Positions 1,223-60,685 are shown, numbered from the stretch's first letter. The stretch is DNA of 64,000 nucleotides from Candidatus Omnitrophota bacterium (GCA_903843285.1 CAIMPC010000068.1:1200-65199), one strand, 5' to 3'. A program made the numbers and translations. Notes: generated by a model not told the origin, from the letters alone.

Positions 1223-3649
1223 ATGGATACATCGAGCGAAATCAAGTTTCTTAAAGCAAAGGTCGCATTATTAGAGACAGAGAAAAAGCACCTCATTCAG
1301 AAATTAGCTGATTTAGAAGAGAAAAAATCCGAAGCACCTCATAATATATTATCCTCACGCATTAACAATCCTATAGTAGTTTCCGCAGAAAGCAGCTCCG
1401 ATTTTACCATCGAACAAAAAATACAGTTATTAAGGAATGCCTTCCGCGGCCGCGAAGATGTTTATGCCAAGTCGTGGGTTAATAACCGGACAGGTAAGCG
1501 CGGATACAGCCCAGTCTGTAAAAACGAATGGGTTCGGTCTTTTTGTCGTAAACCCGCCGTTAGGTGTTCCGAGTGCCCCAATCAGCAGTTTCTGCCTTTT
1601 GATGATATTGCTATTCGCCAGCACTTGGATGGTCGGCAAGTTATTGGTGTTTATCCTATGCTCAAGAACGAGAGCTGTTATTTTTTAGCTATAGATTTTG
1701 ATAAAGAAAACTGGCTTGAGGATATCCGGGCGATTATGACAACTTGTCGTGGAGAAGGGATCCCTGCGGCCGTAGAGCGGTCGCGCTCGGGAAGCGGTGG
1801 GCATGCCTGGATTTTCTTCAGCGAAGAAGTGCCGGCGATTTTAGCGCGTAAGCTCGGAAGCTCTTTAATTACCAAGACCATGGCTCGGCGATATCAGATA
1901 GATATGAAAAGCTATGATCGGATATTTCCTAATCAGGACACAATGCCCAAGGGTGGGTATGGAAACTTGATTGCACTTCCATTCCAGAAAGAAGCATCGC
2001 AGATAGGAAACAGTGTTTTTATTAATGATCATGGAGTGCCTTATCCTGACCAGTGGGCGTTTTTATCATCTGTTGGCAAAATGTCTTATCGAGATGTCGA
2101 GGCAGTCGTGGATGATGCTTCAAAGACCGGACAGATCATCGCGGTGCGGCAGAGCCCTATCGAGGAGAACGACGAGCCATGGATGCGCTTACCTTCTGGT
2201 AAACGTCGTTTCAAAGTTGATATCAGTGAATTACCGGAGGCACTGGATGCTGTTCTTGCGAACCGGCTATATATCAAGATAGGGGAAGGACCCTCTGTTT
2301 TGGTCAATCAGCTTAAGCATTTGGCCGCATTCCAGAATCCTGAGTTTTACAGAAAGCAAAAAATGCGGTTTTCGACGCATGCTACGCCGAGGATTATTTG
2401 TTGTGCGGAGATTATTGATGGATATCTGTCTTTGCCGCGAGGGTGTCTGGATGATGTTAAAGCTTTGCTTGATGAGTATGGTGTGCGGTTGAATATTGAT
2501 GATAAACGTTTTGTTGGCCGTGAGGCAAATTTTGTTTTCAATGGTGTGCTTACGATTGAACAGGAGGGGGCATTAAAGGAAATACTGGATTCTGACTTTG
2601 GCGTGTTTGTCGCTCCTCCGGGTATGGGAAAGACAGTTTTGGCGCTTGCCGCAGTGGCCAAGCGAAAGACTAATACATTAATTCTTGTCCACCGCAAACC
2701 TCTGATGGATCAATGGCGTTTACAGGCATCTTCACTTTTTGATATCAATAAGAAGGAGGTCGGTCAAATTGGTGGTGGGAAGAATAGGTCGAATGGTGTT
2801 ATTGATGTCGCCATGGTTCAGAGCATGGATTTGACGAATGGCGTAGACGATCGCATTATGGATTATGGCTTCGTTATCATTGATGAATGTCATCATGTCG
2901 GTGCAGTGTCATTTGAGAAGGTTTTGGCGCAAGTTAAAGCGAGATATGTGTTGGGTTTAACCGCGACACCATACCGCCGTGATGGTCACCAGCCGATTAT
3001 TCATATGCAGTGCGGGCCCATTTGTCATCAGATTAAGCAAAAAGATTTTTCCGCGCATATTTCGAGTTCGCAGGTTATTACGCGACCAACAGAGTTTGAT
3101 TATCCCTGGAGTGACGATTCAAGAATATCTGATCTGTGGAGTCAATTGCTCAAAGACAGCCAGCGTAACGATAAAATTGTTGATGATATTCTTGCTAATG
3201 TAGATGAAGGACGGTTTCCGTTGATTTTAACGGAGCGTCGGGAGCATCTGGAGATTCTCGCGGAGCGCCTACAGGACAAGATTGATTTTCTCGCCATTTT
3301 GTATGGAGGTATGGGGCGTAAGGATCAGCGAGAAATCTTTGACCAAATTAAAAAGAGTGCCGAGGGTTCGCGGCGTGCTATTTTAGCCACAGGATCGTAT
3401 ATTGGCGAAGGTTTTGACGAACCGCGTCTGGACACGCTTTTTCTGACGATGCCCAGCTCGTTCAAAGGTAAGATTGTTCAATATACAGGGCGTTTGCACA
3501 GGTATCATCATGATAAGCATGATATTAGGATTTATGACTACGTTGATTCCCGATTGCCGATTTTGGAAAGGATGTTTAAGCGCCGTTCGAAGACGTATAA
3601 ATTATTGGGGTATGAGATTAGAGATCACCTGAGGGTTAATGATCAATGA
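1223..3649 (+). CDS. Fusion protein: N-terminal coiled-coil, Zn-knuckle, PrimPol (archaeo-eukaryotic primase) domain, C-terminal SF2 DEAH-like helicase
   Basis: The Zn-knuckle reads C-x7-C-x7-C-x2-C (CKNEWVRSFCRKPAVRCSECPNQ). AEP motif I is FLAIDFD (DxD) and motif II is SGSGGHAWIFF. Helicase motif I is PPGMGKT, motif II is IIDECHH, motif III is GLTATP, and a C-terminal RecA-like domain follows. The gene begins 18 nt after the upstream ATPase. Confidence 0.65.
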   Translation: MDTSSEIKFLKAKVALLETEKKHLIQKLADLEEKKSEAPHNILSSRINNPIVVSAESSSDFTIEQKIQLLRNAFRGREDVYAKSWVNNRTGKRGYSPVCKNEWVRSFCRKPAVRCSECPNQQFLPFDDIAIRQHLDGRQVIGVYPMLKNESCYFLAIDFDKENWLEDIRAIMTTCRGEGIPAAVERSRSGSGGHAWIFFSEEVPAILARKLGSSLITKTMARRYQIDMKSYDRIFPNQDTMPKGGYGNLIALPFQKEASQIGNSVFINDHGVPYPDQWAFLSSVGKMSYRDVEAVVDDASKTGQIIAVRQSPIEENDEPWMRLPSGKRRFKVDISELPEALDAVLANRLYIKIGEGPSVLVNQLKHLAAFQNPEFYRKQKMRFSTHATPRIICCAEIIDGYLSLPRGCLDDVKALLDEYGVRLNIDDKRFVGREANFVFNGVLTIEQEGALKEILDSDFGVFVAPPGMGKTVLALAAVAKRKTNTLILVHRKPLMDQWRLQASSLFDINKKEVGQIGGGKNRSNGVIDVAMVQSMDLTNGVDDRIMDYGFVIIDECHHVGAVSFEKVLAQVKARYVLGLTATPYRRDGHQPIIHMQCGPICHQIKQKDFSAHISSSQVITRPTEFDYPWSDDSRISDLWSQLLKDSQRNDKIVDDILANVDEGRFPLILTERREHLEILAERLQDKIDFLAILYGGMGRKDQREIFDQIKKSAEGSRRAILATGSYIGEGFDEPRLDTLFLTMPSSFKGKIVQYTGRLHRYHHDKHDIRIYDYVDSRLPILERMFKRRSKTYKLLGYEIRDHLRVNDQ

Positions 3650-3733
3650 GCTTAGGACTTGGTTTACCAAAACTCCTGTAACAGCCCAGTAATATAACAA
3701 CCTTTGCCATTGAGGAAACCGTTGCCGATCGAG

Positions 3734-3777
3734 AAGCTGGAAGTGAAAATAGTTAAGTGGGAAGAGCGAAGACATGA
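3734..3777 (+). promoter_or_regulatory. Purine-rich 44-nt leader motif, copy 1 (AAGCTGGAAGTGAAAATAGTTAAGTGGGAAGAGCGAAGACATGA), upstream of the membrane-protein gene
   Basis: It matches 38 of 44 positions of a second copy at 4578-4621. It lies 4 nt before the ATG at 3782. It contains several GGA/GAAG motifs. Confidence 0.4.
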
Positions 3778-3781
3778 TAAT

Positions 3782-4579
3782 ATGGCTACTATGAATACAA
3801 GGATAAAAAATAGAGTTCCGCATATCATTTTCCTATATTGGATTATTAAGATAGTAGCAACAACTTTAGGGGAAACCGGAGCAGATATGTTTTCCATGAC
3901 CCTTAATTTAGGTTATTGGGTTACAATTGCAATATTCATGAGCATATTTCTCATATTGCTTGTGATTAAACTTTCCTTGAAAGGCTATCACCCATTAGTT
4001 TATTGGCTAACTTTTATCGCATCGGCCATAGCAGGTACCGCAATATCCGATTTCATAGATCGTACATTAGGGCTTGGTTATGCGGCAGGATCCGTTATTT
4101 TGATAGCGATCTTATTGGTAGTTCTGGCGGCTTGGTACAAAAAAGAAAAATCAATAAGCGTAGAATATATTACTACACCTATAGCTGAAATTTTTTATTG
4201 GGTAGCTTTTTTAATTGCAAACACACTAGGAACAGCAGCGGGAGACTTTTTTGCTGATAATATGGGGCTTGGTTTTATGAACAGTGCAATTTTGATATCC
4301 GTAGTACTCATTACTGTAGCTTTATTGCACTTCTTTACAAAGATTTCCAATATACTACTATTCTGGGTGGCATTTGTTTTGACAAGGCCATTTGGCGCTA
4401 CATTCGGTGATTTTCTTACCAAAACCAGCACAAAAGGAGGGGTTAACTTCGGCACAGTTGCTTCTTCGATAGTTATTTGTGTGATTTTTGTTATTGTAAT
4501 TCACATAGAAACTAACCTAGAAAAGAAGAGGTGGGCGATTGACCCTCCCCACCTTGATAAAGATGATGCCGCTCTCTAA
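3782..4579 (+). CDS. Integral membrane protein with four tandem ~35-aa repeats (G-x-x-G-x-D-F ... LGLGY followed by a TM helix), DUF347/COG4705-like
   Basis: The repeats are GETGADMFSMTLNLGY, GTAISDFIDRTLGLGY, GTAAGDFFADNMGLGF and GATFGDFLTKTS, each followed by a hydrophobic helix. The track ORF starts at 3704; I chose the ATG at 3782 because the leader motif sits just upstream. Confidence 0.45.
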   Translation: MATMNTRIKNRVPHIIFLYWIIKIVATTLGETGADMFSMTLNLGYWVTIAIFMSIFLILLVIKLSLKGYHPLVYWLTFIASAIAGTAISDFIDRTLGLGYAAGSVILIAILLVVLAAWYKKEKSISVEYITTPIAEIFYWVAFLIANTLGTAAGDFFADNMGLGFMNSAILISVVLITVALLHFFTKISNILLFWVAFVLTRPFGATFGDFLTKTSTKGGVNFGTVASSIVICVIFVIVIHIETNLEKKRWAIDPPHLDKDDAAL

Positions 4580-4621
4580 GCTGGAAGCGGAAATAGTTAA
4601 GCGTGAAGAGTGAAGACACGA
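4578..4621 (+). promoter_or_regulatory. Purine-rich 44-nt leader motif, copy 2, followed by a 7-codon uORF (MNTTDEL, 4627-4650) whose stop overlaps the rluB-like start (ATGA)
   Basis: The sequence AAGCTGGAAGCGGAAATAGTTAAGCGTGAAGAGTGAAGACACGA starts at the stop codon of the upstream gene. Twenty-five nt later comes atgaacactaccgatgagttaTGA, which overlaps the ATG at 4647. Confidence 0.4.
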
Positions 4622-4646
4622 CCCTTATGAACACTACCGATGAGTT

Positions 4647-5363
4647 ATGATAAAAAACTCGAATAAGTTTGCCTTAGAACGTGCCTTGTCGAAGCTGGGC
4701 ACGGCTTCCCGCAGTCAGACCCGGGCATGGATCCTGGAGGGACGGCTGAGTGTTAACGGGAAGGTGGTTAAAGACCCCTTTCGCATGATTACCCCGGGCA
4801 AAGACAAGATTGCTTTAGATGGGGAAGAAGTGCAGAAGAAGGGCTGGAAAACGATCCTGTTATATAAGCCGAGATCCGTCGTGACGACCAGGTTCGACGA
4901 ACATGGCCGCAACACCGTCTTCGATCTCTTACCCAAAGAATTGAAATCTCTTCATCCTGTGGGCCGTCTGGACATGGCGACGACCGGACTATTGCTACTG
5001 ACCAACGATACGAGTCTATCTGCTTATTTGACCGACCCTGCCAATGCCATTAAGCGCACCTATGTAGTCTCCGTTAATGGTAAGGTTACGCCCGAGGAAA
5101 TCCAGAAGCTCGTCCGGGGCATTTACGACAGGGGCGAATTTTTAAAGCCGTTAAAAATAATCCTGCGCAAAGCCAGTAATAAAGAGTCTCATCTGATCGT
5201 GGAGTTAACCGAGGGAAAAAATCGGGAGATTCGCAGGATATTCGAATCTATAGGCCGCGAGGTAACGAGCCTTAGGCGCATTGCCTTCGGTCCTATGAAG
5301 CTGGGAGAGATGCAGCCCGGGCAGTTTCGTTACCTGAGTCCCGAAGAGATCAAAATCACTTAA
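4647..5363 (+). CDS. Pseudouridine synthase, RsuA/RluB/RluE family (S4 domain plus catalytic domain)
   Basis: N-terminal S4-like RNA-binding region. The catalytic motif HPVGRLDMATTGLLLLTNDT carries the conserved Asp. Length is 238 aa. Confidence 0.8.
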   Translation: MIKNSNKFALERALSKLGTASRSQTRAWILEGRLSVNGKVVKDPFRMITPGKDKIALDGEEVQKKGWKTILLYKPRSVVTTRFDEHGRNTVFDLLPKELKSLHPVGRLDMATTGLLLLTNDTSLSAYLTDPANAIKRTYVVSVNGKVTPEEIQKLVRGIYDRGEFLKPLKIILRKASNKESHLIVELTEGKNREIRRIFESIGREVTSLRRIAFGPMKLGEMQPGQFRYLSPEEIKIT

Positions 5364-6075
5364 CTCGCAACACCCCCAGATGCTTCCGTATGAACTTTAA
5401 GATGCACCATTCAAGCTTGCGTTCACGAGCTACTTTTTGGAAGGCTTCCAGGACGGGATGCGGGTGTTCGGCAGAAGCCTCTGTGCCCAAGTTTATTTTA
5501 GGATCGACGTCGTGTACCAATATGAATCCGCCATTTTTCATCATTGGCAGTCCATTTTCGATATCAGCCAGCGCGGCTTCATATGTATGCGCGGCATCGA
5601 CAAGATAAATATCAACTTCCCCGGCCAATCTCCTGGCAATATTAGGAAGCTCTGCCAGCGAATCGGCGCAGATAAGCTCTATCGAATCTCCTCCGAGGCC
5701 TGTCGCTATGATATTCTTTCGCGCAACATCGGGAAAACTACATGGCACGCCCAGGCCGCCATCGACGCATACCAACCTGCCCTTACCGTTTTCAAAGAGC
5801 CCTCTGGCTGTACCCACAGCACTGCCGCCGGCATTCGTTCCAACCTCTACGACGATATCGGGACGGTAAAATCGCACTAATGCGTGCATCCATCTGCCGT
5901 ATCTGGGGTGATCCTTACCTCTGCCGGATACTTCCGGAGCCGCCCCACGAAAGCCGGGGAGAGGGTCGTCCGGCAATGAAAGAAATAGCCGGAAGAGCTC
6001 CTCATCTAATTTTAGAGGCCCTGTGATCCTGGCACGCATAGTAGATGCCAGTATGACATTTTCGAGAATATTCAT
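5356..6075 (-). CDS. Class I SAM-dependent methyltransferase, CmcI/Methyltransf_24-like
   Basis: Motifs VEVGTNAGGSAV (SAM-binding loop) and IYLVDAAHTYEAALADIENGLPMMKNGGFILVHD. The longest ORF extends to 6117; the ATG at 6075 (MNILENV) is more plausible. It is one of three paralogs in the window, with 42165-42857 and 45018-45776. Confidence 0.6.
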   Translation of the reverse strand: MNILENVILASTMRARITGPLKLDEELFRLFLSLPDDPLPGFRGAAPEVSGRGKDHPRYGRWMHALVRFYRPDIVVEVGTNAGGSAVGTARGLFENGKGRLVCVDGGLGVPCSFPDVARKNIIATGLGGDSIELICADSLAELPNIARRLAGEVDIYLVDAAHTYEAALADIENGLPMMKNGGFILVHDVDPKINLGTEASAEHPHPVLEAFQKVARERKLEWCILKFIRKHLGVLRVK

Positions 6076-6255
6076 ATTATTTGTATTATATATTATGAAG
6101 GCGTAATATGGAACCATATAATTATCGCCGAATTACCGCAGTGTGATACAATTAGTTACGGACAGACGTTCATAACGATCTGAATCTGTATTGGGCCATA
6201 AGGAGATCGGGCAGATGAGGAGCTTTCTCCGGAAGGGAGGATTTAACCCCGAACC

Positions 6256-7206
6256 ATGATAAAACTCATAATCGATTGGTTGGTATACGATATTCTTAAG
6301 ATGCGGCAAGGGGCACTCCTTACCGAAGCCCTAAACTTTTTTCTATATGACACGATAAAGATATTTCTATTATTATCCATCATCATCTTCATCGTCGCTA
6401 TCATAAGGACTTTCTTTTCACCCGAGAAAACCCGGTCGATCCTAAGCCATAAGCAGGGCTATTTGGGCAACGTGCTTGCGGCTTTACTGGGGATCGTAAC
6501 GCCTTTTTGTTCATGCAGCGCTGTTCCGTTATTTCTGGGATTTGTAGAGGCAGGTGTCCCGCTGGGAGTTACGTTCTCATTTTTAGTGGCGTCACCCATG
6601 ATTAATGAAGTGGCGCTGATCATGCTATGGGGACTTTTCGGATGGAAAATATCCCTTATCTATATCGGCAGTGGGCTTGTCATAGCTATATTTTCCGGGT
6701 TGGTCATCGGAAGGCTTAAGGTTGAGGATCTGGTCGAGCACTTCGCAATTAAAAAACAGACGTGTTGCGCCCAGTCGACAGGCATGACGTTTAAGGATAG
6801 GATCGATTATGCCAAAGGATATACAAAGGATATCTTAAAAGGCATATGGCTATTTGTAATTATCGGCATAGGATTAGGGGCGTGGATCCATGGTTATGTG
6901 CCGGCTGATTTTCTTGCAAAATATGCGGGCCGAGGAAATTGGTTTGCCGTGCCCCTGGCAACCCTGATCGGTATTCCTCTTTATTCTAACGCGGCCGGCG
7001 TCATCCCTCTGGTCAGCGCGTTGACCGAGAAAGGCGTGGCTATGGGGACGGCCCTTTCGTTCATGATGGCGGTAACCGCGCTTTCACTGCCCGAGTTCAT
7101 AATACTTCGAAAAGCTATGAAGATGAAACTGCTTATAATCTTTGCTTCGGTAGTGGGCGTCGGCATTATATTTATGGGGTATATGTTCAATCTCATTCTG
7201 AAATAA
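6256..7206 (+). CDS. Predicted permease (COG0701/DUF318 family) with a CSC motif
   Basis: Multi-TM protein carrying TPFCSCSAVPLFLGFVEAGVPLG. This family is classically paired with the small thioredoxin-like 'redox-active disulfide protein 2' encoded immediately downstream. Confidence 0.65.
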   Translation: MIKLIIDWLVYDILKMRQGALLTEALNFFLYDTIKIFLLLSIIIFIVAIIRTFFSPEKTRSILSHKQGYLGNVLAALLGIVTPFCSCSAVPLFLGFVEAGVPLGVTFSFLVASPMINEVALIMLWGLFGWKISLIYIGSGLVIAIFSGLVIGRLKVEDLVEHFAIKKQTCCAQSTGMTFKDRIDYAKGYTKDILKGIWLFVIIGIGLGAWIHGYVPADFLAKYAGRGNWFAVPLATLIGIPLYSNAAGVIPLVSALTEKGVAMGTALSFMMAVTALSLPEFIILRKAMKMKLLIIFASVVGVGIIFMGYMFNLILK

Positions 7207-7215
7207 GGAAAAATA

Positions 7216-7449
7216 ATGAAGATAGAAATATTAGGCGTAGGTTGCCCGAAATGCAAACAGCTTGCCGTGAATGTAGACGCGGCCGTAAGAGAGCTTAATC
7301 TCTCAGTAGAGATAGTTAAGGTGACGGATATTATGAAAATTACAGAATATGGTGTGATGATGACGCCTGCGCTTGCGATCGATGGCGCTATTATATCGTC
7401 CGGTAAGGCATTAAGTAAAGACGATATAAAGAAGATCCTATCCAGATAA
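7216..7449 (+). CDS. Thioredoxin-family small protein (redox-active disulfide protein 2 type), CPKC active site
   Basis: A 77-aa protein beginning MKIEILGVGCPKCKQL. It lies 10 nt after the permease. Confidence 0.75.
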   Translation: MKIEILGVGCPKCKQLAVNVDAAVRELNLSVEIVKVTDIMKITEYGVMMTPALAIDGAIISSGKALSKDDIKKILSR

Positions 7450-7460
7450 TAGGGGGAAGA

Positions 7461-7898
7461 TTGAAAAAAATATTTTCAACCCTTTTGGCAGTCACTATGC
7501 TTATCAGCGGTAGCGTGATCCTTCTCTCGAACGCCCGGGCCGCGGATGGCGATAGAGACAGTCACGTCGTTGCCTATTATTTTCATGGCTCTTTTCGCTG
7601 TCCGACATGCCATAAGCTGGAGCAGTATTCAAAGGAAGCTATAGAGACCAACTTTAAGGATGAGCTTTCTTCCGGAAAATTGGAGCTGAAGGCAGTAAAT
7701 GTCGAGGAGGGCCGTAATGAGCATTATACGAGCGATTACCAACTCTATACCAAATCGCTTATTTTGTCATTGATCAGGGATGGCAAGGAGACAAAATATA
7801 AGAACCTGGACAAGATCTGGGAGTATGTGCACAATAAACAAAGATTTCTGGATTACGTTAAGGCAGAGGTCGCTGATTTCCTGAAGGAAGCAAGATGA
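7461..7898 (+). CDS. Secreted thioredoxin-fold protein with a CPTC motif
   Basis: It has a signal peptide and the motif FHGSFRCPTCHKLEQ. Its 3' end overlaps the start of the CcdA-like gene. Confidence 0.4.
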   Translation: MKKIFSTLLAVTMLISGSVILLSNARAADGDRDSHVVAYYFHGSFRCPTCHKLEQYSKEAIETNFKDELSSGKLELKAVNVEEGRNEHYTSDYQLYTKSLILSLIRDGKETKYKNLDKIWEYVHNKQRFLDYVKAEVADFLKEAR

Positions 7899-8587
7899 TG
7901 GAAATGATTATAGTCTTTGCGTCAGCGTTATGGCTCGGTATATTAACTTCAATAAGCCCATGTCCATTGGCCGCCAATGTGGCCGCCATCTCTTTTTTAT
8001 CTAAAAGAGTAACTCATCCGGCCCTTGTATTCATTTCAGGATTGGCTTATACGCTGGGGAGGATGGTTTCATATTGCGTTCTGGGATGGATAATTATAAA
8101 CTCTCTTTTAAGCGTTCCCCAGACGGCCCAGTTCCTGCAGAAATACATGGGTAAGGCTTTAGGGCCCATACTTATCATTACGGGACTTATACTGCTCGAA
8201 ATGATCACTATTTGCATTCCAGGGTTTTCGCTTTCACAAAAACATGGCAATAAGCTTGTGGAATCCGGCGCGTTCGGAGCTTTTCTGCTCGGAATGATTT
8301 TTGCACTCGCATTCTGTCCGATCTCCGCGGCATTATTTTTCGGAAGCCTGATTCCCCTGGCGCTTAAAAGCAAGCTCAGCGTTTTATTACCGATTCTTTA
8401 TGGTGTAGGAACGGGGCTACCCGTCCTTTTGTTTGCTTTCGGTATAGCCGTGGGTATTACGTCGCTGAGTCGCTGGTTTCATCAGATCTCCAGGATTGAA
8501 TACTACACACGGAGAATCACCGGGGCCGTATTTGTGGCAGTGGGGCTGTATTATACAGGGGTATATATTTTTAGATTATTTTATTAG
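7895..8587 (+). CDS. CcdA/DsbD-like transmembrane thiol-disulfide transporter
   Basis: Six TM helices. SISPCPLAANVAAISFL is in the first TM (SPC-P-L, as in CcdA) and FCPISAALFFG is in a later TM. Confidence 0.5.
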   Translation: MMEMIIVFASALWLGILTSISPCPLAANVAAISFLSKRVTHPALVFISGLAYTLGRMVSYCVLGWIIINSLLSVPQTAQFLQKYMGKALGPILIITGLILLEMITICIPGFSLSQKHGNKLVESGAFGAFLLGMIFALAFCPISAALFFGSLIPLALKSKLSVLLPILYGVGTGLPVLLFAFGIAVGITSLSRWFHQISRIEYYTRRITGAVFVAVGLYYTGVYIFRLFY

Positions 8588-8598
8588 GATATAATTAT

Positions 8599-8627
8599 TG
8601 ATTAGTTGTTTTCGACGTGGTATAAAT
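8599..8627 (+). promoter_or_regulatory. Sigma70-like promoter: TTGATT, 17-nt spacer, TATAAA
   Basis: The sequence ttgattagttgttttcgacgtggtataaat lies 16 nt upstream of an AAAAGGAGA RBS and the ATG at 8644. Confidence 0.5.
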
Positions 8628-8643
8628 TCATAAAAGGAGATGT

Positions 8644-8778
8644 ATGGAAAATAGCAAGAAGAGCAATAAGGGTGAAACCAAAATAAACAAAAGTGATATT
8701 ATAGCGAGCAGGAAGACGTGCTCGGCAGATGGCACCGGCTTATCGCATTACGTTCTGATGGATAAGAAGACCAAGTAA
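8644..8778 (+). CDS. Small ORF of 44 aa (MENSKKSNKGETKINKSDIIASRKTCSADGTGLSHYVLMDKKTK); candidate precursor or substrate peptide for the downstream radical SAM/SPASM enzyme
   Basis: It has its own promoter and a strong RBS (AAAAGGAGAtgtATG). It ends 21 nt before the rSAM gene. It is too short to appear in the 60-aa ORF track. Confidence 0.35.
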   Translation: MENSKKSNKGETKINKSDIIASRKTCSADGTGLSHYVLMDKKTK

Positions 8779-8799
8779 GAGTCATCGCGATAATCCCAT

Positions 8800-10191
8800 A
8801 TGCCCCATAATAAGATCCCCTCTACGGGCCGGTATGTCAATTCAGGCTCAGGCCCTACGATTCAACCTATCGACATAGGCCATCCGCACTATGTGGGACT
8901 GGTGGACGCTGATACCGCGTTTTGGTCGCTGGTTAGGCGCGACAGCTTGTCCGACGTTCTGCGCGACAGCGCGCTACTCACATCCTACATGAGAAAGAGG
9001 GAATCTTTCCGAAAAGAGATGCACAGGCTTCGCTTCGGATTAAAGCCCTCCGCCGTATATTTTAATATCACCGAAAGATGCAATCTCAATTGCCGTTATT
9101 GTTATATTCCTGGGGATATGCGCCGTAATGGGAAACACATGTCCGAGGATAAGGTGATAGAGGCCCTCCGGACGCTTAAGCAATATTTTAATAAAACGAT
9201 AGATAGAAAATTAGTGCCTAAGATAATTTTCCATGGGGCCGAACCTCTGCTTAATAAAAAAGCATTGTTCACTGCCATTGAAAAATTTGGGAAAGATTTC
9301 ACATTCGGGGTGCAAACGAACACTGTCCTATTGGATGCCGAAACAGTCGCGTTTTTGAAATCGAAAAAAGTAAGCATCGGTATATCACTCGACGGCCCGA
9401 CGGCCGGAATAGTTAACAAAACCAGGGCGAGCTGGTCCGGGGAAGGCGTCTTCGAACACGTTATGAAGGCGATGGAGCTGTTAAGGAGCTACGATGCATG
9501 GAGCGTGATATGCACCGTCACTACCGAAAATATGCGTTCCCTTCCGGGGTTCGTCAATTTTTTACATAAGAATGAAGTTCCGACATGTCTTTTAAATGTT
9601 GTCAGATGCACGCTTCCCTCCGCCCGCAAAATCAAACCCGATGATGCGGTCGTCGCGCGGCACTTTATCGATGCGCTCGAGACGAGCTATAAGCTTTATA
9701 AAGAAAGCGGACGAAAACTGGTGGTGGGTAATTTTGCGAACATATTGATCAGCATACTTGCTCCGACGGCGCGCAGGCTGATGTGCGATATTTCACCCTG
9801 CGGGGGAGGTAGAAGCTTTTTTGCGCTGGCGCCGAGCGGTGATATATTTCCCTGCAGTGAATTTATCGGATTGAAACATTTCAAAGGCGGCAACATTTTT
9901 AAGGATAGCGTAAAAGATATCTTAAAGAGCGGCCCATTCAAACTGGTAACGGAAAGAAAAGTGGAAGATATTGAACCATGCCGCCGCTGTGCCATTCGGC
10001 ATTTTTGCGGATCGCCCTGTCCCGCCGAAGCATATGAGATGAACGGCGGAATGAATAAGACAGGCTCATTCTGCGGGTTCTATGAAGAGCAGGCCCGATA
10101 TGCTCTGCGTCTCATAGCGGATAATAAACATACTGCTTTTCTGTGGGACGGCTGGGATCGCGGCACCAAAGAGATATTTAACGTCATATAG
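8800..10191 (+). CDS. Radical SAM/SPASM-domain protein with a ~95-aa N-terminal extension
   Basis: The CxxxCxxC motif is CNLNCRYC in YFNITERCNLNCRYCYIP. The C-terminal SPASM Cys cluster reads CRRCAIRHFCGSPCPAEAY...SFCGFY. The N-terminal extension before the rSAM core could be an RRE-like domain. Confidence 0.8.
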   Translation: MPHNKIPSTGRYVNSGSGPTIQPIDIGHPHYVGLVDADTAFWSLVRRDSLSDVLRDSALLTSYMRKRESFRKEMHRLRFGLKPSAVYFNITERCNLNCRYCYIPGDMRRNGKHMSEDKVIEALRTLKQYFNKTIDRKLVPKIIFHGAEPLLNKKALFTAIEKFGKDFTFGVQTNTVLLDAETVAFLKSKKVSIGISLDGPTAGIVNKTRASWSGEGVFEHVMKAMELLRSYDAWSVICTVTTENMRSLPGFVNFLHKNEVPTCLLNVVRCTLPSARKIKPDDAVVARHFIDALETSYKLYKESGRKLVVGNFANILISILAPTARRLMCDISPCGGGRSFFALAPSGDIFPCSEFIGLKHFKGGNIFKDSVKDILKSGPFKLVTERKVEDIEPCRRCAIRHFCGSPCPAEAYEMNGGMNKTGSFCGFYEEQARYALRLIADNKHTAFLWDGWDRGTKEIFNVI

Positions 10192-10314
10192 AGATTTTAA
10201 GTAATTCAAAGTTGTATTCCTGAGCAAAATTCCCCATCCTGTTTCTGAGGGCTTGTTATTATCACGGCCGTGGTGTAAAATCGTGTTAATTGTAAAAAGG
10301 AGGATTATCATACT

Positions 10315-11307
10315 ATGAAGAAGATACTGCAAATTATAATCGCCATAGTTACCATACTATCTTTACCGCAGGCGCACGCCGAGGATAATATGCCTCTAAA
10401 GCTCGCCGCAAAAATTACACTACCCAAAGTACGCGGGCGAATAGACCATATGGCGGTAGACCTGAAGAACGATCGCTTGCTCATAGCCTGCGCAGGCAAT
10501 AATACGCTGGAGGTCGTGGATTTAAGAGCGGGTAAGCATCTTTACAGCGTTGCCGGGTTTAAAAAGCCGCAAGGGGTGGTATGTGTATCGGAATATAATA
10601 AGATCTATGTCACGAACGGCGGAAACGGTGAATGCGATATTCTGGACGGAGATTCTCTAAAATTAATTAACGGCATACCGCTATCCGACAATGCGGATAG
10701 TATTCGTTACGAACCATCGGGTAAATTGATCTATGTGGGATACGGTAAAGGGGCCATCGGTATTATTGACCCTTCGACAGATAAGCTTATCAGCCGCTTC
10801 AGCATCGATGGACACCCGGAATCTTTTCAGGTCGAGAGCTCCGGCAATAGAATATATGTTAATGTGCCGGAGGCAGGCAATATTTCAGTGATCAATAAAG
10901 CAAGAGGAGGGATCGTTGACAGATGGCCTCTGCCGAACTTAAAAGGTAATTTTTCGATGGCGCTGGATGAGGCCGGATACAGGGCATTTGTGGGTTGTGG
11001 CGAGGCGCCAACGCTCGTGGTATTTAATACCAAGGCCGGAGAATATGTGGCTAAAATGAAGATCGACAAAGACGCCGACGATATCTATTATGATCAGGCG
11101 CGTAAACGCATCTATATTTCATGCGGCAGTGGTTTCATAGATTGTTTCAGCAGTGACGGAGCCGACCATTATACCAATATAGCTAAGATAAAGACTCCTG
11201 TCGGTTCACGCACCTCGCTATTTGTGCCGGAACAGAACCGGTTTTATGTCGCAGTCCCGTCCCATGGTAAACAGCCTTCGGAGGTCTGGGTTTACGATGC
11301 CCAGTAA
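10315..11307 (+). CDS. Secreted YVTN/YncE-type beta-propeller repeat protein
   Basis: Signal peptide MKKILQIIIAIVTILSLPQAHA. Repeated blade-like segments follow (YVTNGGNG, IYVGYGKG, RIYVNVPEAGN, RFYVAVPSHG). RBS AAAAGGAGGA. Confidence 0.6.
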   Translation: MKKILQIIIAIVTILSLPQAHAEDNMPLKLAAKITLPKVRGRIDHMAVDLKNDRLLIACAGNNTLEVVDLRAGKHLYSVAGFKKPQGVVCVSEYNKIYVTNGGNGECDILDGDSLKLINGIPLSDNADSIRYEPSGKLIYVGYGKGAIGIIDPSTDKLISRFSIDGHPESFQVESSGNRIYVNVPEAGNISVINKARGGIVDRWPLPNLKGNFSMALDEAGYRAFVGCGEAPTLVVFNTKAGEYVAKMKIDKDADDIYYDQARKRIYISCGSGFIDCFSSDGADHYTNIAKIKTPVGSRTSLFVPEQNRFYVAVPSHGKQPSEVWVYDAQ

Positions 11308-11399
11308 TAACCAAAGCCCCACGGCGGATAAGGCCGTCGCGTTATACACGTCTTAAGACTATCGCATGACTTTCAAATAAGGATGATAGATAACCCAAA

Positions 11400-13037
11400 G
11401 TGCGGACACATCTTTCGAATAAGATAATATCCGACCCATTCAAAACAAATATTTTATCATGGGCCATTGTGTGTTTTGTGATAATATGCGCGAGCCTGAT
11501 AAAGATCCGTTTACTGGGAATGCCGCTTGAGCGCGACGAGGGCGAGTACGCCTACATCGCTCAGCTTTTTTTGCACAAAGCGCCTTTATACATAAATGCC
11601 TATAGCATGAAACTCCCGGGCATATATTTTATATATGCGATTGTCATAAAACTTTTCGGCCATAGCATACAAAGTATACATCTGGGCCTTACCGTAATAA
11701 CCGGCATAACGGGCGTGCTGGTATTTGTATTGGCGAAGCGGCTGTTCAATCCTATAACCGGCGTCGTAGCCGGCATATCTTACATGCTACTCACCATGGG
11801 CAAGTATACGCTGGCCTTTAATATCGAACATGCGGTTATGCTGTTTGTCGTAGGGGGAACCATTCTGCTGATGGAGCCCGCAGGGGGCAGTCGGCGGTTA
11901 TTCATCAGTGGTTTAATGTTCGGTCTCGCATTTATAACAAAACAGCATGCAATATTTTTCATAGCATTCGCATCTGCCTATATAGTATGGGGTCATTTAA
12001 AAGCTCATGCCTCGTCATATGCGCCTTGCGTAAATAGATTGCGCATATTTCTATCCGGGGCGGTATTGCCCTTTATCTTAGTATGCATATTCTTGGCCTG
12101 GCAGGGTGTATTTAATGTTTTTTGGTTCTGGGCCTTCACGTATTCTGCAAAGTACTGCGGCATAATAAAATTTAAAGACGGTATCGAGAATCTTTTCTAC
12201 ACAGCGAATAAGATTATAGGCTGTTCGCCCCTGATATGGCTCGCCGGGGCCTTCGGTATTGTCGTAATGAAATTGGACTCCAGCACCCGGTCGAATATGG
12301 TCATTGTGTCGGGATTTGTTATAGCCTCTATTCTTGCCGTAGTGCCCGGGCTCTATTTTCGCCACCATTATTTTATTTTCATATTTCCTGCCCTGGCCAT
12401 CCTGGCGGGCAGGGCCGTTCATTATGCATGGCAGCGCCTGTCTGCATCGCCCTTATCCGGTGGATACCGAAAGTCGATTATGGCCACCCTATTTATCCTC
12501 CTCTTTGGCATTTCGATATTTCATCAGAGGAAATTCTTATTTAAGATGGATACCGCAGAAGCCGTAAATGATATCTATATAACATCCCCTATAGTCGAGA
12601 CGATGGAGATAGCTAAGTATATCGAAAAACATTCCGATAGCAGTAAGAGCGTCGTGGTGTTTGGCTCGGAGCCCCAGATATTTTATTACTTAAATAGGTT
12701 CTCGCCGATCAGCTACATATATGTGTATCCGCTCATGGAAGAGACTCGGTATGTTTTAAATTTGCAGAAGAATTTTATAAAGCAGGTCGAATCGGCCAAT
12801 GCGGACTATCTGGTATATGTGAATGTAAGCACGTCATGGTTTAACAGATATATAAATAAAGCTATAGCATATCCGCTATTTGAATGGATGCACGCTTATC
12901 AGAAGAGGTATTATGATATAGTGGGCGTTATAGATATGATCTCGCGCAATAACAGTGTCTATGTCTGGGATTCTGAGGTGATCAAATATAGACCGAAGTC
13001 GGATAGTTTTATATACGTACTGAAGCGAAAAGAATAA
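11400..13037 (+). CDS. GT-C fold membrane glycosyltransferase, PMT/ArnT (GT39/GT83)-like
   Basis: Multi-TM protein. A DE motif (ERDEGEYAY) sits in the first periplasmic loop, as in the dolichyl-phosphate-mannose protein mannosyltransferase / ArnT family. Confidence 0.55.
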   Translation: MRTHLSNKIISDPFKTNILSWAIVCFVIICASLIKIRLLGMPLERDEGEYAYIAQLFLHKAPLYINAYSMKLPGIYFIYAIVIKLFGHSIQSIHLGLTVITGITGVLVFVLAKRLFNPITGVVAGISYMLLTMGKYTLAFNIEHAVMLFVVGGTILLMEPAGGSRRLFISGLMFGLAFITKQHAIFFIAFASAYIVWGHLKAHASSYAPCVNRLRIFLSGAVLPFILVCIFLAWQGVFNVFWFWAFTYSAKYCGIIKFKDGIENLFYTANKIIGCSPLIWLAGAFGIVVMKLDSSTRSNMVIVSGFVIASILAVVPGLYFRHHYFIFIFPALAILAGRAVHYAWQRLSASPLSGGYRKSIMATLFILLFGISIFHQRKFLFKMDTAEAVNDIYITSPIVETMEIAKYIEKHSDSSKSVVVFGSEPQIFYYLNRFSPISYIYVYPLMEETRYVLNLQKNFIKQVESANADYLVYVNVSTSWFNRYINKAIAYPLFEWMHAYQKRYYDIVGVIDMISRNNSVYVWDSEVIKYRPKSDSFIYVLKRKE

Positions 13038-19759: not shown

Positions 19760-19834
19760 GCGCCTGTGGCCTAACGGATAAGGCAATGGCCTCCGAAGCC
19801 ATGTATGGCAGTTCGATTCTGCCCAGGCGCGCCA
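19760..19834 (+). tRNA. tRNA-Arg(CCG): tRNA-Arg (anticodon CCG)
   Basis: Cloverleaf with acceptor GCGCCTG/CAGGCGC, D-arm TGGCCTAACGGATAAGGCA, anticodon stem-loop ATGGC-CTCCGAA-GCCAT, T-arm GGCAGTTCGATTCTGCC, discriminator G and an encoded CCA. Confidence 0.85.
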
Positions 19835-26542: not shown

Positions 26543-27670
26543 ATGGAGCGCGTTCACTCCGTTCCGCAGGAAACCTACACCGCATTCAGTAATTCGATTC
26601 ACTCCAAAGTGTTAGAAAAGAACATCCCGATTGATGGGACGATAGAGCTGACCCAGCGCTGCAACTTAAAATGCGTGCAATGTTATTGCTGTCATGACCC
26701 GTCTAAGCGGGAGCTAAGCTATGACGAAATATGCCGTATACTGGACGAGATCGCCGAAGCAGGATGTCTTTGGCTACTGATAACCGGCGGGGAACCTCTA
26801 TTGAGACCCGACTTTTTAGATATCTATATGTATGCAAAAAAGAAGGGTTTTCTAATCACGCTATTTACCAATGCGACATTAGTCACTCCTGAGATATTGG
26901 ATCATCTGAGTAAATATCCGCCTTTTTCTATAGAAGTCAGCGTATACGGCGCGACCAAAGAAATATATGAAAAGATTACGGGGGTCACAGGATCATTTGA
27001 ATCCTGCATGGCCGGGATAAAGCTTATTCTCGACAGAAAACTACCGTTAAAATTAAAGACAATGGCCATGGCATTAAACCACCACGAGGTATCTCAGATG
27101 AAGGAATGGTCCGAAGGCATGGGCATCGAATTCAGGTTTGATGCGATGCTTCACCCGAAGTTAACCGGATTGAAGGATCCGTGGGATGTAAGGCTTTCGC
27201 CTGAGGATGCAGTGGCGCTCGATGGTTCAGACCAGAAGAAGCTCGATGCCTGGCGTGAGGTCTGTAAGCATCCATGGGAGCCATCGCAGAATGGGAGGCT
27301 ATTTACCTGCGGCGCCGGGAAGAATTCATTTCATATCGATCCGTACGGTTATCTCAGGCCCTGCGATATGATGCGAACGTTCAGCTACGATCTGCGTAAG
27401 CACTCATTCCGTGAAGCATGGGTTGAGATGTGCAGTGCGGTTTCGGTCGAGAAAGCCCCCGGTGATTATAAGTGCAGAGGCTGTAAGATGACTTTTATCT
27501 GCAACCAGTGTCCCGGATGGGGATTTCTGGAGAACGGAGATATCTATAGCATATCAGAAAATATGTGTGATGTGGCCCAATTAAGGGCGCGGAAGTTTGG
27601 GGCGGGAAGTGGTAACACAAAGGGAGGTATGTCAAATGAAGAAGAAATCTTATCAAAAGCCCAGCGTTAA
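26543..27670 (+). CDS. Radical SAM/SPASM-domain peptide-maturase-like enzyme
   Basis: The CxxxCxxC is CNLKCVQC in ELTQRCNLKCVQCYC at about aa 40. The SPASM cluster reads CGAGKNSFHIDPYGYLRPC...CRGCKMTFICNQCPGWG. There is no N-terminal RRE, consistent with the separate PqqD protein. Confidence 0.85.
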   Translation: MERVHSVPQETYTAFSNSIHSKVLEKNIPIDGTIELTQRCNLKCVQCYCCHDPSKRELSYDEICRILDEIAEAGCLWLLITGGEPLLRPDFLDIYMYAKKKGFLITLFTNATLVTPEILDHLSKYPPFSIEVSVYGATKEIYEKITGVTGSFESCMAGIKLILDRKLPLKLKTMAMALNHHEVSQMKEWSEGMGIEFRFDAMLHPKLTGLKDPWDVRLSPEDAVALDGSDQKKLDAWREVCKHPWEPSQNGRLFTCGAGKNSFHIDPYGYLRPCDMMRTFSYDLRKHSFREAWVEMCSAVSVEKAPGDYKCRGCKMTFICNQCPGWGFLENGDIYSISENMCDVAQLRARKFGAGSGNTKGGMSNEEEILSKAQR

Positions 27671-50170: not shown

Positions 50171-51351
50171 TAAGACGCCTGCCGATAATAAGCTCATCAG
50201 CGAATATCCGGGACGCTATCTTTGCCGTGAATTCGATGCGTTCATCGGAAGAAGCTTCAAAATTCATCGAAATGCTATCTGCGGCTATTGGCGCCGGAAA
50301 TATATACCTGACGAGTTCAGGAGTATCGGCATGTTATCTTATATTGACGGCGCTGTCGAAAATCTCGCCTAAAAAAGAGGTAGTACTGAGCGCGTATACA
50401 GCAGGCAGTCTCGTCGTGGCCATAAGGAAGGCAGGGCTTAAGCCGGTGCTGGCCGATATCTCGCTCGACGATTTTAATGCCGATACCGATAAGCTATCGG
50501 GAGCAGTGAATGACGACACTCTCGCAGTGCTTGCAATACATATGTTCGGCATTACATCCGGCGGCCTTGGCGGCCTGCGAAATAATCTTCCCGAAGGGAC
50601 ATTCCTGGTCGAGGACTGCTGTCAGGCGATGGGGTCCGTCACGCTCGGGCGTACCGTAGGCTCGTTGGGTGACGTGAGCTTCTTCAGCTTTAATCGCGGG
50701 AAGAACCTGCCGCTTTGCGGCGGCGGATGCATAGCTACAGATGATTTATTTATAACTAAGGCCATCGAGCCCCGGATCCACGAATTAGCGCCGGTTTCCG
50801 CTCTCGGAGAATTCAGCGCATTTGTAAAAACGTTGGCATTCTCTGCCTCGACAAACCCATATGTGTACGGCCCGGCTTACGCGGTTGTCTCGAGATTTAA
50901 GGAGTCATTTCCACCGGACGATATCGCTCCGGAGCGTATGAGCAATTTTCAGATTGCCCTCGGGGGGCGTTTAATGTGGAGACTCGGACGGCTGACGGAT
51001 AAGAGATATGAGAATGGGATGTATCTGCTAAAGGGGCTTGCGGGATTAAGCGGTGTTATCATTCCGAAGATCCATGATCGTGATCGTCCGGCCTTTGGCC
51101 GGTTGCCGATAATATTTAAGAATACAGATAAGCGCGCCCTGGCGGAGGAGATGCTTAGCAGGTCGGGGATAGAGTCATCGAGGATGTATCTAAGGCCTCT
51201 GCATCATATGTTTGATCTCGGATACAATGCATCAGATTTTCCCAACGCGATTTATCTTGCCGAGCGGTTATTGACCATACCTGTCTATTCCAAGCTTAAA
51301 AAACGGGATCTGGACCTGATGATAAAGATAATTGATGAGGCGGCACGATAA
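50167..51351 (+). CDS. DegT/DnrJ/EryC1/StrS-family PLP-dependent sugar aminotransferase
   Basis: FFSFNRGKNLPLCGGG contains the PLP-Lys motif. Family-typical N-terminal segment. 394 aa. Confidence 0.8.
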   Translation: MIRRLPIISSSANIRDAIFAVNSMRSSEEASKFIEMLSAAIGAGNIYLTSSGVSACYLILTALSKISPKKEVVLSAYTAGSLVVAIRKAGLKPVLADISLDDFNADTDKLSGAVNDDTLAVLAIHMFGITSGGLGGLRNNLPEGTFLVEDCCQAMGSVTLGRTVGSLGDVSFFSFNRGKNLPLCGGGCIATDDLFITKAIEPRIHELAPVSALGEFSAFVKTLAFSASTNPYVYGPAYAVVSRFKESFPPDDIAPERMSNFQIALGGRLMWRLGRLTDKRYENGMYLLKGLAGLSGVIIPKIHDRDRPAFGRLPIIFKNTDKRALAEEMLSRSGIESSRMYLRPLHHMFDLGYNASDFPNAIYLAERLLTIPVYSKLKKRDLDLMIKIIDEAAR

Positions 51352-52502
51352 TGGCGCACCCTAATATAAAGAGGATATTGAATAAGACGTTGAGACAGCC
51401 GGCATATGCGCTGAGGACCGGTATTAAAAGATTAGGCGCATACGCGGCCTATCGGTTCGGTAACGGCAGGTCTGAACCGCCGGAGGCGGTGACCATATTT
51501 TTAACGCGCAAGTGTAACCTTCACTGTAAGATGTGCGGCCAATGGGGAGAGGGAGGGGTTACCGGACGGCGCTCCGAGGAAATAATTCAGGAAGAGCTTC
51601 CGCTCGATATATTAAAGAAGAGGCTGGATGAGATGGCATCGTTCTCACCCGGGGTAACGCTGTTCGGGGGAGAACCGCTTCTTTATAAAGGCTGTTTGGA
51701 ACTGATCAGGCACATTAAGGCTAATCGAATGCACTGCCTTATCATTACGAACGGATTTCTGGTGCATGATCTTGCGCGCGAGCTCGTTGATTCCGGGCTG
51801 GACGAGCTTAATGTGTCGCTCGATGGCCGTCGGGAAGTGCACGACCGCATAAGGGGGATGAACGGCCTATTTGATAAGATAATGTCGGGGCTGGAAGCCG
51901 TGAGAGATATTAAGATATCTTCCGGCGGTAAAAGGCCGCTGGTCAATATCCAGTGCACTATATCTAAGTATAACTATCGCGATCTGGAGGACATGATAGA
52001 GATCGCTCGGGGCCTCCGCGCAGATTCACTGACATTTCATAATCTCATATTTACGAATAAGGAGATCCTGGAAAAGCAGAAGAGGTTCGATGATATTCTG
52101 GGGTCTTCCTCCGAAGACTGGCGCGGGTTCGATTTTGATCCGGGCGTGGATCCCGACGTCGTTCGCGACGAGATGGATCGGATGCTTGGCGGAAGATACC
52201 CATTCGGGGTGGACTTCTATCCGAACCTGTCACGCTCGGCGCTTAGGAGCTACTACAGGGATCCGGCCTTTGTGCCGCGTGAGTATAGGGCCAGATGCCT
52301 GAGCCCGTGGATCGCCGCGTATATATTTCCCGATGGAGAGGTGCGGCCATGCCTTAACAGCACATTTTCATACGGTAACATAAAGAGTTCAAGATTTGAG
52401 GATATATGGAACAGCGATGACGCGGTAAAGTATCGGCGCATTCTTAAGGAGAATAAGATATTCCCTGCCTGCGCCAGATGCACGGAGCTTTACAGATATT
52501 GA
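51351..52502 (+). CDS. Radical SAM/SPASM-domain protein embedded in the glycan locus
   Basis: The CxxxCxxC is CNLHCKMC in IFLTRKCNLHCKMCGQWG. C-terminal Cys cluster CLSPWIAAYIFPDGEVRPC...CARCTELY. Its start overlaps the DegT stop. Confidence 0.75.
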   Translation: MAHPNIKRILNKTLRQPAYALRTGIKRLGAYAAYRFGNGRSEPPEAVTIFLTRKCNLHCKMCGQWGEGGVTGRRSEEIIQEELPLDILKKRLDEMASFSPGVTLFGGEPLLYKGCLELIRHIKANRMHCLIITNGFLVHDLARELVDSGLDELNVSLDGRREVHDRIRGMNGLFDKIMSGLEAVRDIKISSGGKRPLVNIQCTISKYNYRDLEDMIEIARGLRADSLTFHNLIFTNKEILEKQKRFDDILGSSSEDWRGFDFDPGVDPDVVRDEMDRMLGGRYPFGVDFYPNLSRSALRSYYRDPAFVPREYRARCLSPWIAAYIFPDGEVRPCLNSTFSYGNIKSSRFEDIWNSDDAVKYRRILKENKIFPACARCTELYRY

Positions 52503-59107: not shown

Positions 59108-59184
59108 GTGCCTGTAGCTCAGTTGGATAGAGTACCTGGCTACGAACCAGGTGGTCGCAGGTTCGAATCCTGCCAGGCACGCCA
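59108..59184 (+). tRNA. tRNA-Arg(ACG): tRNA-Arg (anticodon ACG)
   Basis: Acceptor GTGCCTG/CAGGCAC, D-arm GCTCAGTTGGATAGAGT, anticodon stem-loop CCTGG-CTACGAA-CCAGG, T-arm GCAGGTTCGAATCCTGC, discriminator G and an encoded CCA. Confidence 0.9.
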
Positions 59185-60593: not shown

Positions 60594-60685
60594 GGAGAGG
60601 TCGCCTAGTGGCCTAGGGCGGCGGTTTGCTAAACCGCTATGTGGGTAATACCGCATCGAGAGTTCAAATCTCTCCCTCTCCGCCA
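60594..60685 (+). tRNA. tRNA-Ser(GCT): tRNA-Ser (anticodon GCT), class II with a long variable arm
   Basis: Acceptor GGAGAGG/CCTCTCC, anticodon stem-loop GCGGT-TTGCTAA-ACCGC, ~20-nt variable arm, T-arm GAGAGTTCAAATCTCTC, encoded CCA. It starts 3 nt after the tadA stop. Confidence 0.85.

Follow-up and report, generated by a model that had tools for sequence, protein, structure and literature searches.

A CbpA/CbpB peptide and radical SAM enzyme pair without its cobalamin riboswitch in Candidatus Omnitrophota

We analysed a stretch of 64,000 nt from Candidatus Omnitrophota bacterium (GCA_903843285.1 CAIMPC010000068.1:1200-65199; hereafter the window) and in particular its positions 8,599 to 11,307, where a gene for a 44-aa peptide, a gene for a radical S-adenosylmethionine (SAM) enzyme with a SPASM domain and a gene for a secreted beta-propeller protein follow one another. 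By every protein-level criterion the first two are CbpA and CbpB, members of an already named, widespread family to which the window copy adds one more member. We consider it probable that the window holds a CbpA/CbpB pair which has lost its cobalamin riboswitch and to which the propeller is unrelated, and that the family is expressed when B12 is scarce, performs a radical modification at or from the Cys of the peptide, and has an intracellular role in the cobamide economy. An earlier reading of the window, made from the sequence alone (the original prediction), had recognized the peptide and the enzyme as a candidate maturation module; that the pair already has a name, and that a cobalamin riboswitch is the hallmark of its family, had escaped it.

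The gene cbpA (8644..8778, + strand) encodes the 44-aa modified-peptide precursor MENSKKSNKGETKINKSDIIASRKTCSADGTGLSHYVLMDKKTK, and cbpB (8800..10191, +), which follows on the same strand after a gap of 21 nt (8779-8799), encodes the 463-aa radical SAM/SPASM peptide maturase. Searched against NCBIfam, the peptide matches TIGR04164 ('modified peptide precursor CbpA') over residues 20-43 with 58 bits (cutoff 35, E 4.5e-16), and the enzyme matches TIGR04163 ('peptide-modifying radical SAM enzyme CbpB') over residues 22-448 with 684.4 bits (cutoff 375). The original prediction had quoted the translation of the small open reading frame (ORF) exactly and had rightly placed its end 21 nt before the 463-aa ORF; the strong ribosome-binding site it described is also present, as an AAGGAG Shine-Dalgarno sequence at 8634-8639, 4 nt 5' of the cbpA ATG. 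An out-of-frame ATG 4 nt upstream of this start opens a 4-codon mini-ORF (ATG TAT GGA AAA TAG; window 8640-8654), which extends over the start of cbpA and competes with it for the Shine-Dalgarno sequence. In other public assemblies of the same organism the 44-aa gene has already been called, close homologues of both proteins are named CbpA/CbpB in public records, and the gene arrangement of the window recurs identically on 18 contigs from several samples.

Carriers of CbpB number at least 595 genomes in a scan of one genome per species, and 80 loci were fetched for context, from Omnitrophota, Planctomycetota, Verrucomicrobiota, Syntrophales, Nitrospinota, Chloroflexota, Myxococcota, Bacillota, Kiritimatiellia, Desulfovibrionaceae and others. 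In all 80 loci, from more than 10 phyla, cbpB is closely preceded by an ORF containing the CbpA core, the spacing being 11-40 nt in nearly all of them (most commonly 23 nt). Considering the TIGR04164 match together with the equivalent ORF at every locus, the 44-aa ORF is far beyond chance; the family matches and this complete linkage likewise bear out the proposal that it is a peptide substrate-type gene paired with the radical SAM/SPASM enzyme, and the conservation of the small ORF upstream of orthologous enzymes, which had been named as the check to make, is evident.

Over 71 distinct cores the CbpA consensus reads D-V-I-A-x-R-K-x-C-x-A-x-G-T-G-L-S-H-Y-I-L-M-D-K-K-x-K-stop, with eight invariant residues (R, C, G, G, L, S, H, Y), a position Cys+2 limited to A (57), T (6), P (6), S (1) and V (1), and I/V variation after the core Tyr. 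The window core, RKTCSADGTGLSHY, keeps R-x2-C-x3-G-x-G-L-S-H-Y. Unlike most CbpA, it has Val and not Ile after the Tyr, a variant common to three close relatives and several other CbpA, two of which are labelled alphaproteobacterial. The conserved unit spans residues 18-44 (nt 8695-8775, +; DIIASRKTCSADGTGLSHYVLMDKKTK), the N-terminal part being variable and Lys-rich. The invariant residues draw on the full range of synonymous codons (Leu 6, Ser 5, Arg 5, Gly 4), which shows that selection acts on the peptide and not on an RNA.

When 1.84 billion representative proteins were searched with a CbpA profile, 216 clusters matched. Among the 150 matches listed, all are 25-134 aa long with the core at the C-terminus, except one of 1031 aa, and the CbpA relatives among them are thus short, free-standing peptides; the lone long match aligns only with the Lys-rich part of the profile, and a fusion of the core to a larger protein was rejected by taking it as spurious. 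Four ORFs (L044, L067, P0256 and P0257) contain a tandem duplication of the whole 26-31-aa CbpA unit, the repeat in L044 being 26 residues long. The tandem cores lie at about 5780-5970 in L044 and about 5540-5950 in L067, an example being ...VIAYRSKCDAKGTGLSHYILPEDKKEVVAFRRKCDSKGTGLSHYILPEDKVKPS. Since complete units are repeated, the recognition elements must sit within the CbpA unit and not in a long leader, and the product of the tandem-core peptides is possibly released.

Upstream of cbpA a conserved nucleotide element is visible in all three frames of the translated upstream regions. In 11 of 12 loci tested with Rfam, a cobalamin riboswitch (RF00174, 55-87 bits) lies directly upstream of cbpA and on its strand. 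An nhmmer model built from 12 riboswitches was applied to the 76 loci with enough upstream sequence, and placed a riboswitch no more than 500 nt upstream of cbpB in 72 of them; in L067 it is somewhat further away owing to the tandem cores, giving 73 of 76 by nhmmer and Rfam together. At the remaining three (L041, L063 and L078) none was found, and Rfam confirmed the absence. Magnetospirillum magneticum offers a typical riboswitch-cbpA-cbpB locus. In nearly all lineages, then, cbpAB is a stand-alone operon behind a cobalamin riboswitch. Riboswitch-less L041, a Bacillota metagenome-assembled genome (MAG), carries a RACo-type reductive activator of corrinoid proteins just upstream of cbpAB (2720-4954, +), which is a corrinoid link independent of the riboswitch.

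The neighbourhood of the pair points in the same direction. Ten loci have a second, divergent cobalamin riboswitch heading a minus-strand operon (L003, L004, L005, L007, L021, L035, L046, L058, L059 and L065, roughly 400-800 nt upstream of cbpB), and in several of these back-to-back loci the opposite-strand operon reads cobC-cobU-cobT-cobS-cobD/Q. At 20 of the 80 loci at least one of cobT, cobS, cobU, cobC and CobD-CobQ is found. Pfam censuses that took in 129 neighbours downstream and 113 upstream gave CobU and CobC as the most frequent upstream families and CobT (TIGR03160, 467 bits), immediately downstream and on the same strand in 7-8 loci, as the sole recurrent downstream family; CobC, CobU, CobT, CobS and a CobD-CobQ fusion occur in the divergent operons near cbpAB. 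No recurrent protease, exporter or immunity gene appeared in either census. Genes for late steps of cobamide synthesis are the only recurrent neighbours of what is otherwise a stand-alone pair.

The window, by contrast, has no riboswitch: RF00174 was found neither at the gathering score over the 64 kb, nor by nhmmer, nor in a permissive scan of 5000-11500 at E<=5, whose only match, to DnaX (E 1.3), is noise. All six Omnitrophota relatives (L001, L002 and L085-L088; CbpB 78-81% identical) carry the riboswitch, within the roughly 300 nt that precede their cbpA, which encodes 44 aa where it has been called (L085-L088), and we therefore regard the loss as recent and specific to the lineage of the window. 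Aligned with L001 and L002, the window becomes homologous only at the ribosome-binding site and cbpA; where the relatives have a riboswitch of about 170-210 nt and a terminator, the window has an arsG-like gene's 3' end and an AT-rich spacer of 56 nt (8588..8643, +).

For this spacer a near-consensus sigma70 promoter had been proposed, a claim that we do not uphold. The hexamers TTGATT (8598-8603) and TATAAA (8621-8626), 17 nt apart, agree with the consensus at 9/12 positions and lack the conserved T at position 6 of the -10 element; a consensus promoter scan, which gave 11 sites in 8000-12000 (8.7 +/- 2.9 in shuffles), did not list the pair; and since only 7 nt separate the -10 element from the Shine-Dalgarno sequence, a transcript would start at or within the ribosome-binding site. 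The same spacer also has a perfect TATAAT (8590-8595). No terminator is predicted between the upstream gene (which ends at 8587) and cbpA, so that read-through is as likely as a promoter of its own. Directly upstream of cbpA lies a four-gene cluster resembling an organoarsenical-resistance operon (6256-8587, +), with an ArsP_1-type permease, an MTH895/ArsE-family thioredoxin-like protein (102 bits, cutoff 62), an ArsF-family protein (111, cutoff 60) and an ArsG-family DsbD_2 transporter (274, cutoff 200); no such cluster was found near cbpAB in the other loci. The pair may be co-transcribed with this cluster, and its expression in the window would have to be uncoupled from B12 and is probably either constitutive or dependent on read-through from the arsP/E/F/G-like operon.

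CbpB contains a Radical_SAM domain (residues 89-255) and a SPASM domain (residues 334-397) according to Pfam. Its CX3CX2C [4Fe-4S] motif (C94/C98/C101, in CNLNCRYC at residues 94-101; 9079..9102, +) is preceded by 93 residues, close to the 95 or so first estimated, and its SPASM region (9784..10074, +) holds eight conserved Cys (C329, C334, C352, C394, C397, C403, C407 and C425); in 61 sequences the columns of both sets do not vary. The window protein shares 60-81% identity with homologues from across phyla, the mean column identity being 71-75%, and cross-phylum identity within the family is 60-65%. The next NCBIfam families all score below their cutoffs: PapB (147 bits, cutoff 340), DynA (140), the anaerobic sulfatase-maturating enzyme (anSME; TIGR03942, 126, cutoff 349), QhpD (TIGR03906, 108, cutoff 453) and the SCIFF maturase (TIGR03974, 107, cutoff 425). 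The alternative that the enzyme groups with the anaerobic sulfatase maturases, which the original prediction had held open, is thus contradicted by 126 bits for that family against 684 for TIGR04163.

An AlphaFold2 model of CbpB from the 61 sequences (predicted local distance difference test (pLDDT) 80, predicted template-modelling score (pTM) 0.83) has as its top Foldseek matches CteB (E 5e-16) and anSMEcpe (2e-14; template-modelling (TM) score to target 0.74-0.77), followed by TigE, ChlB, SkfB and SuiB, and a profile search of PDB sequences ranks CteB (1e-29) and anSMEcpe (2.5e-26) likewise. With anSMEcpe/AtsB the enzyme shares the radical SAM plus full SPASM fold. In the HMMER alignment Ser353 of CbpB is opposite Asp277, the residue after anSME C276, and is followed by the invariant Glu354; Asp277 is the proposed base of anSME. 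In the same alignment, C329, C352, C394, C397, C403, C407 and C425 match anSMEcpe C255, C276, C317, C320, C326, C330 and C348, and C334 lies 3 residues off C261. All eight auxiliary-cluster Cys of anSMEcpe, including the C255 equivalent, are thus present, which is enough for full ligation of two auxiliary [4Fe-4S] clusters; CteB has a Lys at the position of C329. In anSME the auxiliary clusters are fully ligated and in CteB the Aux I site is open (ligand assignments from PMC6231123), and the auxiliary clusters of CbpB would accordingly be expected to be anSME-like and fully Cys-ligated. At residue 339 (9814-9816) the window and its nearer relatives have Ser (GGGRSFFAL) where most CbpB have Cys (GGGRCFFAL), and this ninth Cys of the SPASM region is therefore dispensable.

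The original prediction had also suggested that the region in front of the iron-sulfur motif could be a peptide-binding domain of the RRE type (RRE, the recognition element of RiPPs, peptides made on the ribosome and modified after translation). A family-specific N-terminal extension does exist (residues 22-79; 8863..9036, +); it is conserved in three CbpB alignments (A1, A2 and A4) and, as the TIGR04163 match spans residues 22-448, is part of the family model. DSSP applied to two AlphaFold2 models gives the same topology, three beta-strands then two helices (pLDDT 81-89), reminiscent of an RRE but one helix short of its three strands and three helices. The identity as an RRE was not confirmed: the extension has no PqqD match in Pfam, no PDB sequence match and no significant Foldseek match (best E 1.7), the RRE-containing CteB and TbiB1 reaching only E 2-3 with TM <0.3. 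The extension may be a peptide-docking domain.

Considering these features together, we suggest the following mechanism. At typical loci low B12 would lead the riboswitch to permit read-through, and CbpA would be made. CbpB would then dock the self-contained CbpA unit, probably through strand pairing between VIAxRK and the N-terminal sheet of the enzyme, and cleave SAM, whereupon the 5'-deoxyadenosyl radical would abstract one hydrogen within the C-x-A-x-G-T-G-L-S-H-Y segment and the auxiliary clusters would accept the second electron. As CbpA has only one invariant Cys, always at the same distance from G-T-G-L-S-H-Y, and in view of the enzymes closest to CbpB, we favour one radical-mediated modification at or from that Cys. 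Our preferred chemistry, put forward tentatively and by analogy, is an intramolecular thioether from the Cys to a residue of the GTGLSHY segment; less probable, though favoured by the C-x-A/P-x pattern and a closed Aux I, would be an anSME-like oxidation at the Cys beta-carbon, and in third place might come a His/Tyr C-C, C-N or C-O cross-link of the DynA/DarE type. Given that export and processing genes are lacking, that conservation is extreme and that B12 represses the pair, we think it most likely that the product works inside the cell as a factor of the cobamide economy (in handling corrinoids or cobalt, or in assembling the nucleotide loop) and not as an antibiotic. A more specific possibility, which we think less likely than not, is that the peptide-derived factor acts directly in cobamide metabolism at low B12, either as a cross-linked corrinoid- or cobalt-binding peptide or as a helper or precursor for lower-ligand assembly beside CobT; if so, it would be an unrecognized, widespread component of B12 biology in anaerobes, and the window copy a natural constitutive variant.

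Several points weigh against this proposal. Riboswitch control and the cob neighbourhood show regulation and association, not mechanism, and 75% of the cbpAB loci are without a nearby cob gene; tblastn with CobT, CobS, CobU, CobC and CobD-CobQ found none in the 64-kb window, and four lineages, including that of the window, work without a riboswitch. B12 riboswitches also govern B12-independent isozymes, so that the CbpAB product could instead replace a B12-dependent function. The modified residue and the chemistry rest on analogy, and a fully Cys-ligated Aux I, as predicted here and as in anSME but not in CteB, weakens a thioether model that needs the thiolate to bind Aux I. Among 8 million full texts (author manuscripts outside that set excepted) no publication on CbpA/CbpB, TIGR04163/TIGR04164 or the GLSHY motif was found.

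The third gene of the region (10315..11307, +), 123 nt downstream of cbpB, encodes a secreted YncE-like, 7-bladed propeller of 330 aa with a signal-peptide-like N-terminus (MKKILQIIIAIVTILSLPQAHA). The original prediction had described a secreted YVTN beta-propeller acting as partner of the pair, by analogy with quinohemoprotein amine dehydrogenase (QHNDH) and its maturase QhpD. The ORF and its signal-like N-terminus are as described; the YVTN match, like those to YncE and PQQ repeats in Pfam and NCBIfam, is weak and below cutoff. A three-part system of peptide, radical SAM enzyme and secreted propeller in the manner of QhpC/QhpD would account for three adjacent genes on one strand, would involve a radical SAM/SPASM enzyme acting on a small Cys-containing polypeptide, and finds QhpD among the distant hidden Markov model (HMM) matches. 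However, about 90% of the window genes, including nearly all long ORFs, are on the + strand, which makes co-orientation uninformative; the QhpD score falls far short of its cutoff; and CbpA has one Cys and no Trp for cysteine tryptophylquinone. Blastp among the ORFs of the 80 cbpAB loci gave no propeller homologue (only E>1 noise), the downstream census contained none, and none lies near cbpB in the six Omnitrophota relatives. The propeller itself belongs to a very large family of secreted YncE-like proteins of roughly 330 aa (6,913 matches at E<=1e-10), and in four context look-ups its homologues (46-75% identity) adjoin chromate transporters, a two-component system, Ysc84 or unannotated genes, never cbpAB. 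We therefore reject the propeller as a CbpAB partner, set the QHNDH analogy aside and hold the three-part system to be extremely improbable. In L089 and L090 a homologue of 50% identity follows a chromate-resistance operon (ChrB, DUF1529, ChrA), and in the window cbpAB separates the propeller from the arsenical-type cluster that it follows; the pair may have entered between a metal(loid)-resistance operon and the propeller.

The other explanations differ in what they make of CbpA. The one we take most seriously, while still thinking it unlikely, is that CbpA is sacrificed to yield a small excised cofactor, as for pyrroloquinoline quinone (PQQ) or mycofactocin, and that this cofactor feeds cobamide assembly or replaces a B12-dependent function. 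The extreme conservation across phyla of enzyme and core residues would fit it, as would the tandem cores (if a product is released), the position of cobT immediately downstream, and B12 repression, which is typical of biosynthetic genes or of B12-independent substitutes; PqqA/PqqE and MftA/MftC likewise combine a very short, highly conserved peptide with a SPASM radical SAM enzyme across phyla rather than in particular strains. Yet cbpAB lacks the conserved peptidase, oxidase, carrier or other tailoring genes seen in pqqB-F or mftB-F, its conserved unit of about 24 residues goes well beyond a two-residue cofactor precursor, cobalamin riboswitch control is without counterpart in those systems, and there is no chemical precedent. 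Were the product of CbpA and CbpB instead a RiPP secreted as an antimicrobial or a signal, for example a bacteriocin of the sactipeptide or ranthipeptide type, one could understand why the nearest characterized HMM families are ranthipeptide, dynobactin and sactipeptide maturases and why CteB is the top PDB match, but a near-identical core over more than ten phyla is unlike bacteriocins, the peptide has no leader-cleavage motif and only one Cys, no exporter, protease or immunity gene is conserved in the neighbour censuses, and cobalamin riboswitch control points elsewhere; we think this very unlikely.

As remote as the three-part system is the notion that CbpB is an anSME-type protein maturase whose true substrate is a larger protein, CbpA being incidental or regulatory. 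It draws on the fold and the eight-Cys SPASM set shared with anSMEcpe and on the C-x-A/P-x pattern, which resembles the sulfatase motif, C/S-x-P/A-x-R; CbpA, however, has an invariant Gly at the Arg of that motif, the peptide gene is coupled to cbpB in every one of the 80 loci, no other gene is conserved nearby (sulfatases make up 2 of 129 downstream neighbours), and the TIGR03942 score is far below its cutoff. That the window pair is a decaying, non-functional remnant, relocated without its riboswitch, would explain the missing riboswitch and terminator, the short spacer and the undetected cob genes, but both ORFs are intact with all family-invariant residues kept, the Shine-Dalgarno sequence is strong, the arrangement is the same on all 18 contigs, and the lineages of L041, L063 and L078 are also without a riboswitch; we rate decay no higher than a secreted RiPP.

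The reading we retain is that of a CbpA/CbpB pair with a cobamide-related, intracellular product, and it sets the window copy beside typical members of the family, with both proteins above the family cutoffs, the peptide gene immediately upstream on the same strand and the core and Cys motifs kept; the riboswitch is what sets it apart. In its chemistry CbpB would, judging by sequence and fold, work most like the anSME or CteB-type SPASM enzymes, although it fails membership of the anSME, PapB, SCIFF and QhpD families. From anSME it differs by an extra N-terminal extension of about 85 residues and by a partner that is a 35-60-aa peptide and not a sulfatase. CteB with its SCIFF peptide is also a conserved, housekeeping-like peptide/radical SAM pair in anaerobes, but SCIFF has six Cys where CbpA has one, and CteB has a canonical RRE; a multi-Cys core peptide, as expected of a PapB- or SCIFF-type system, is likewise at odds with the single invariant Cys of CbpA. 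Ordinary as the window copy is, the family joins RiPP enzymology and B12 biology: it is a two-gene peptide/radical SAM module carried by hundreds of species in more than ten mostly anaerobic phyla, and about 95% of its loci are under a cobalamin riboswitch. Once its chemistry and role are understood, it could prove to be a player so far missed in the acquisition or assembly of cobamides, or to spare B12. That the module can exist apart from B12 control is shown by the lineages without a riboswitch, that of the window among them, which constrains functional models.

Finally, some further features deserve mention. The window contains tRNAs at 19760-19831, 59108-59181 and 60594-60682, and two more radical SAM proteins with SPASM/twitch-like C-termini (26543-27670 and 51351-52502, both +), whose best NCBIfam matches, far below cutoff, are AhbD/NirJ/MftC-like and tungsten-cofactor-maturase-like, and which sit in an exopolysaccharide, glycosyltransferase and PEP-CTERM-type region. 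One of these two is probably the other peptide-maturation module of the original prediction. In the related Omnitrophota MAG of locus L001, a group I intron (RF00028, 62.6 bits, gathering score 50) lies at 7475-7738 (+), about 5 kb downstream of cbpB.

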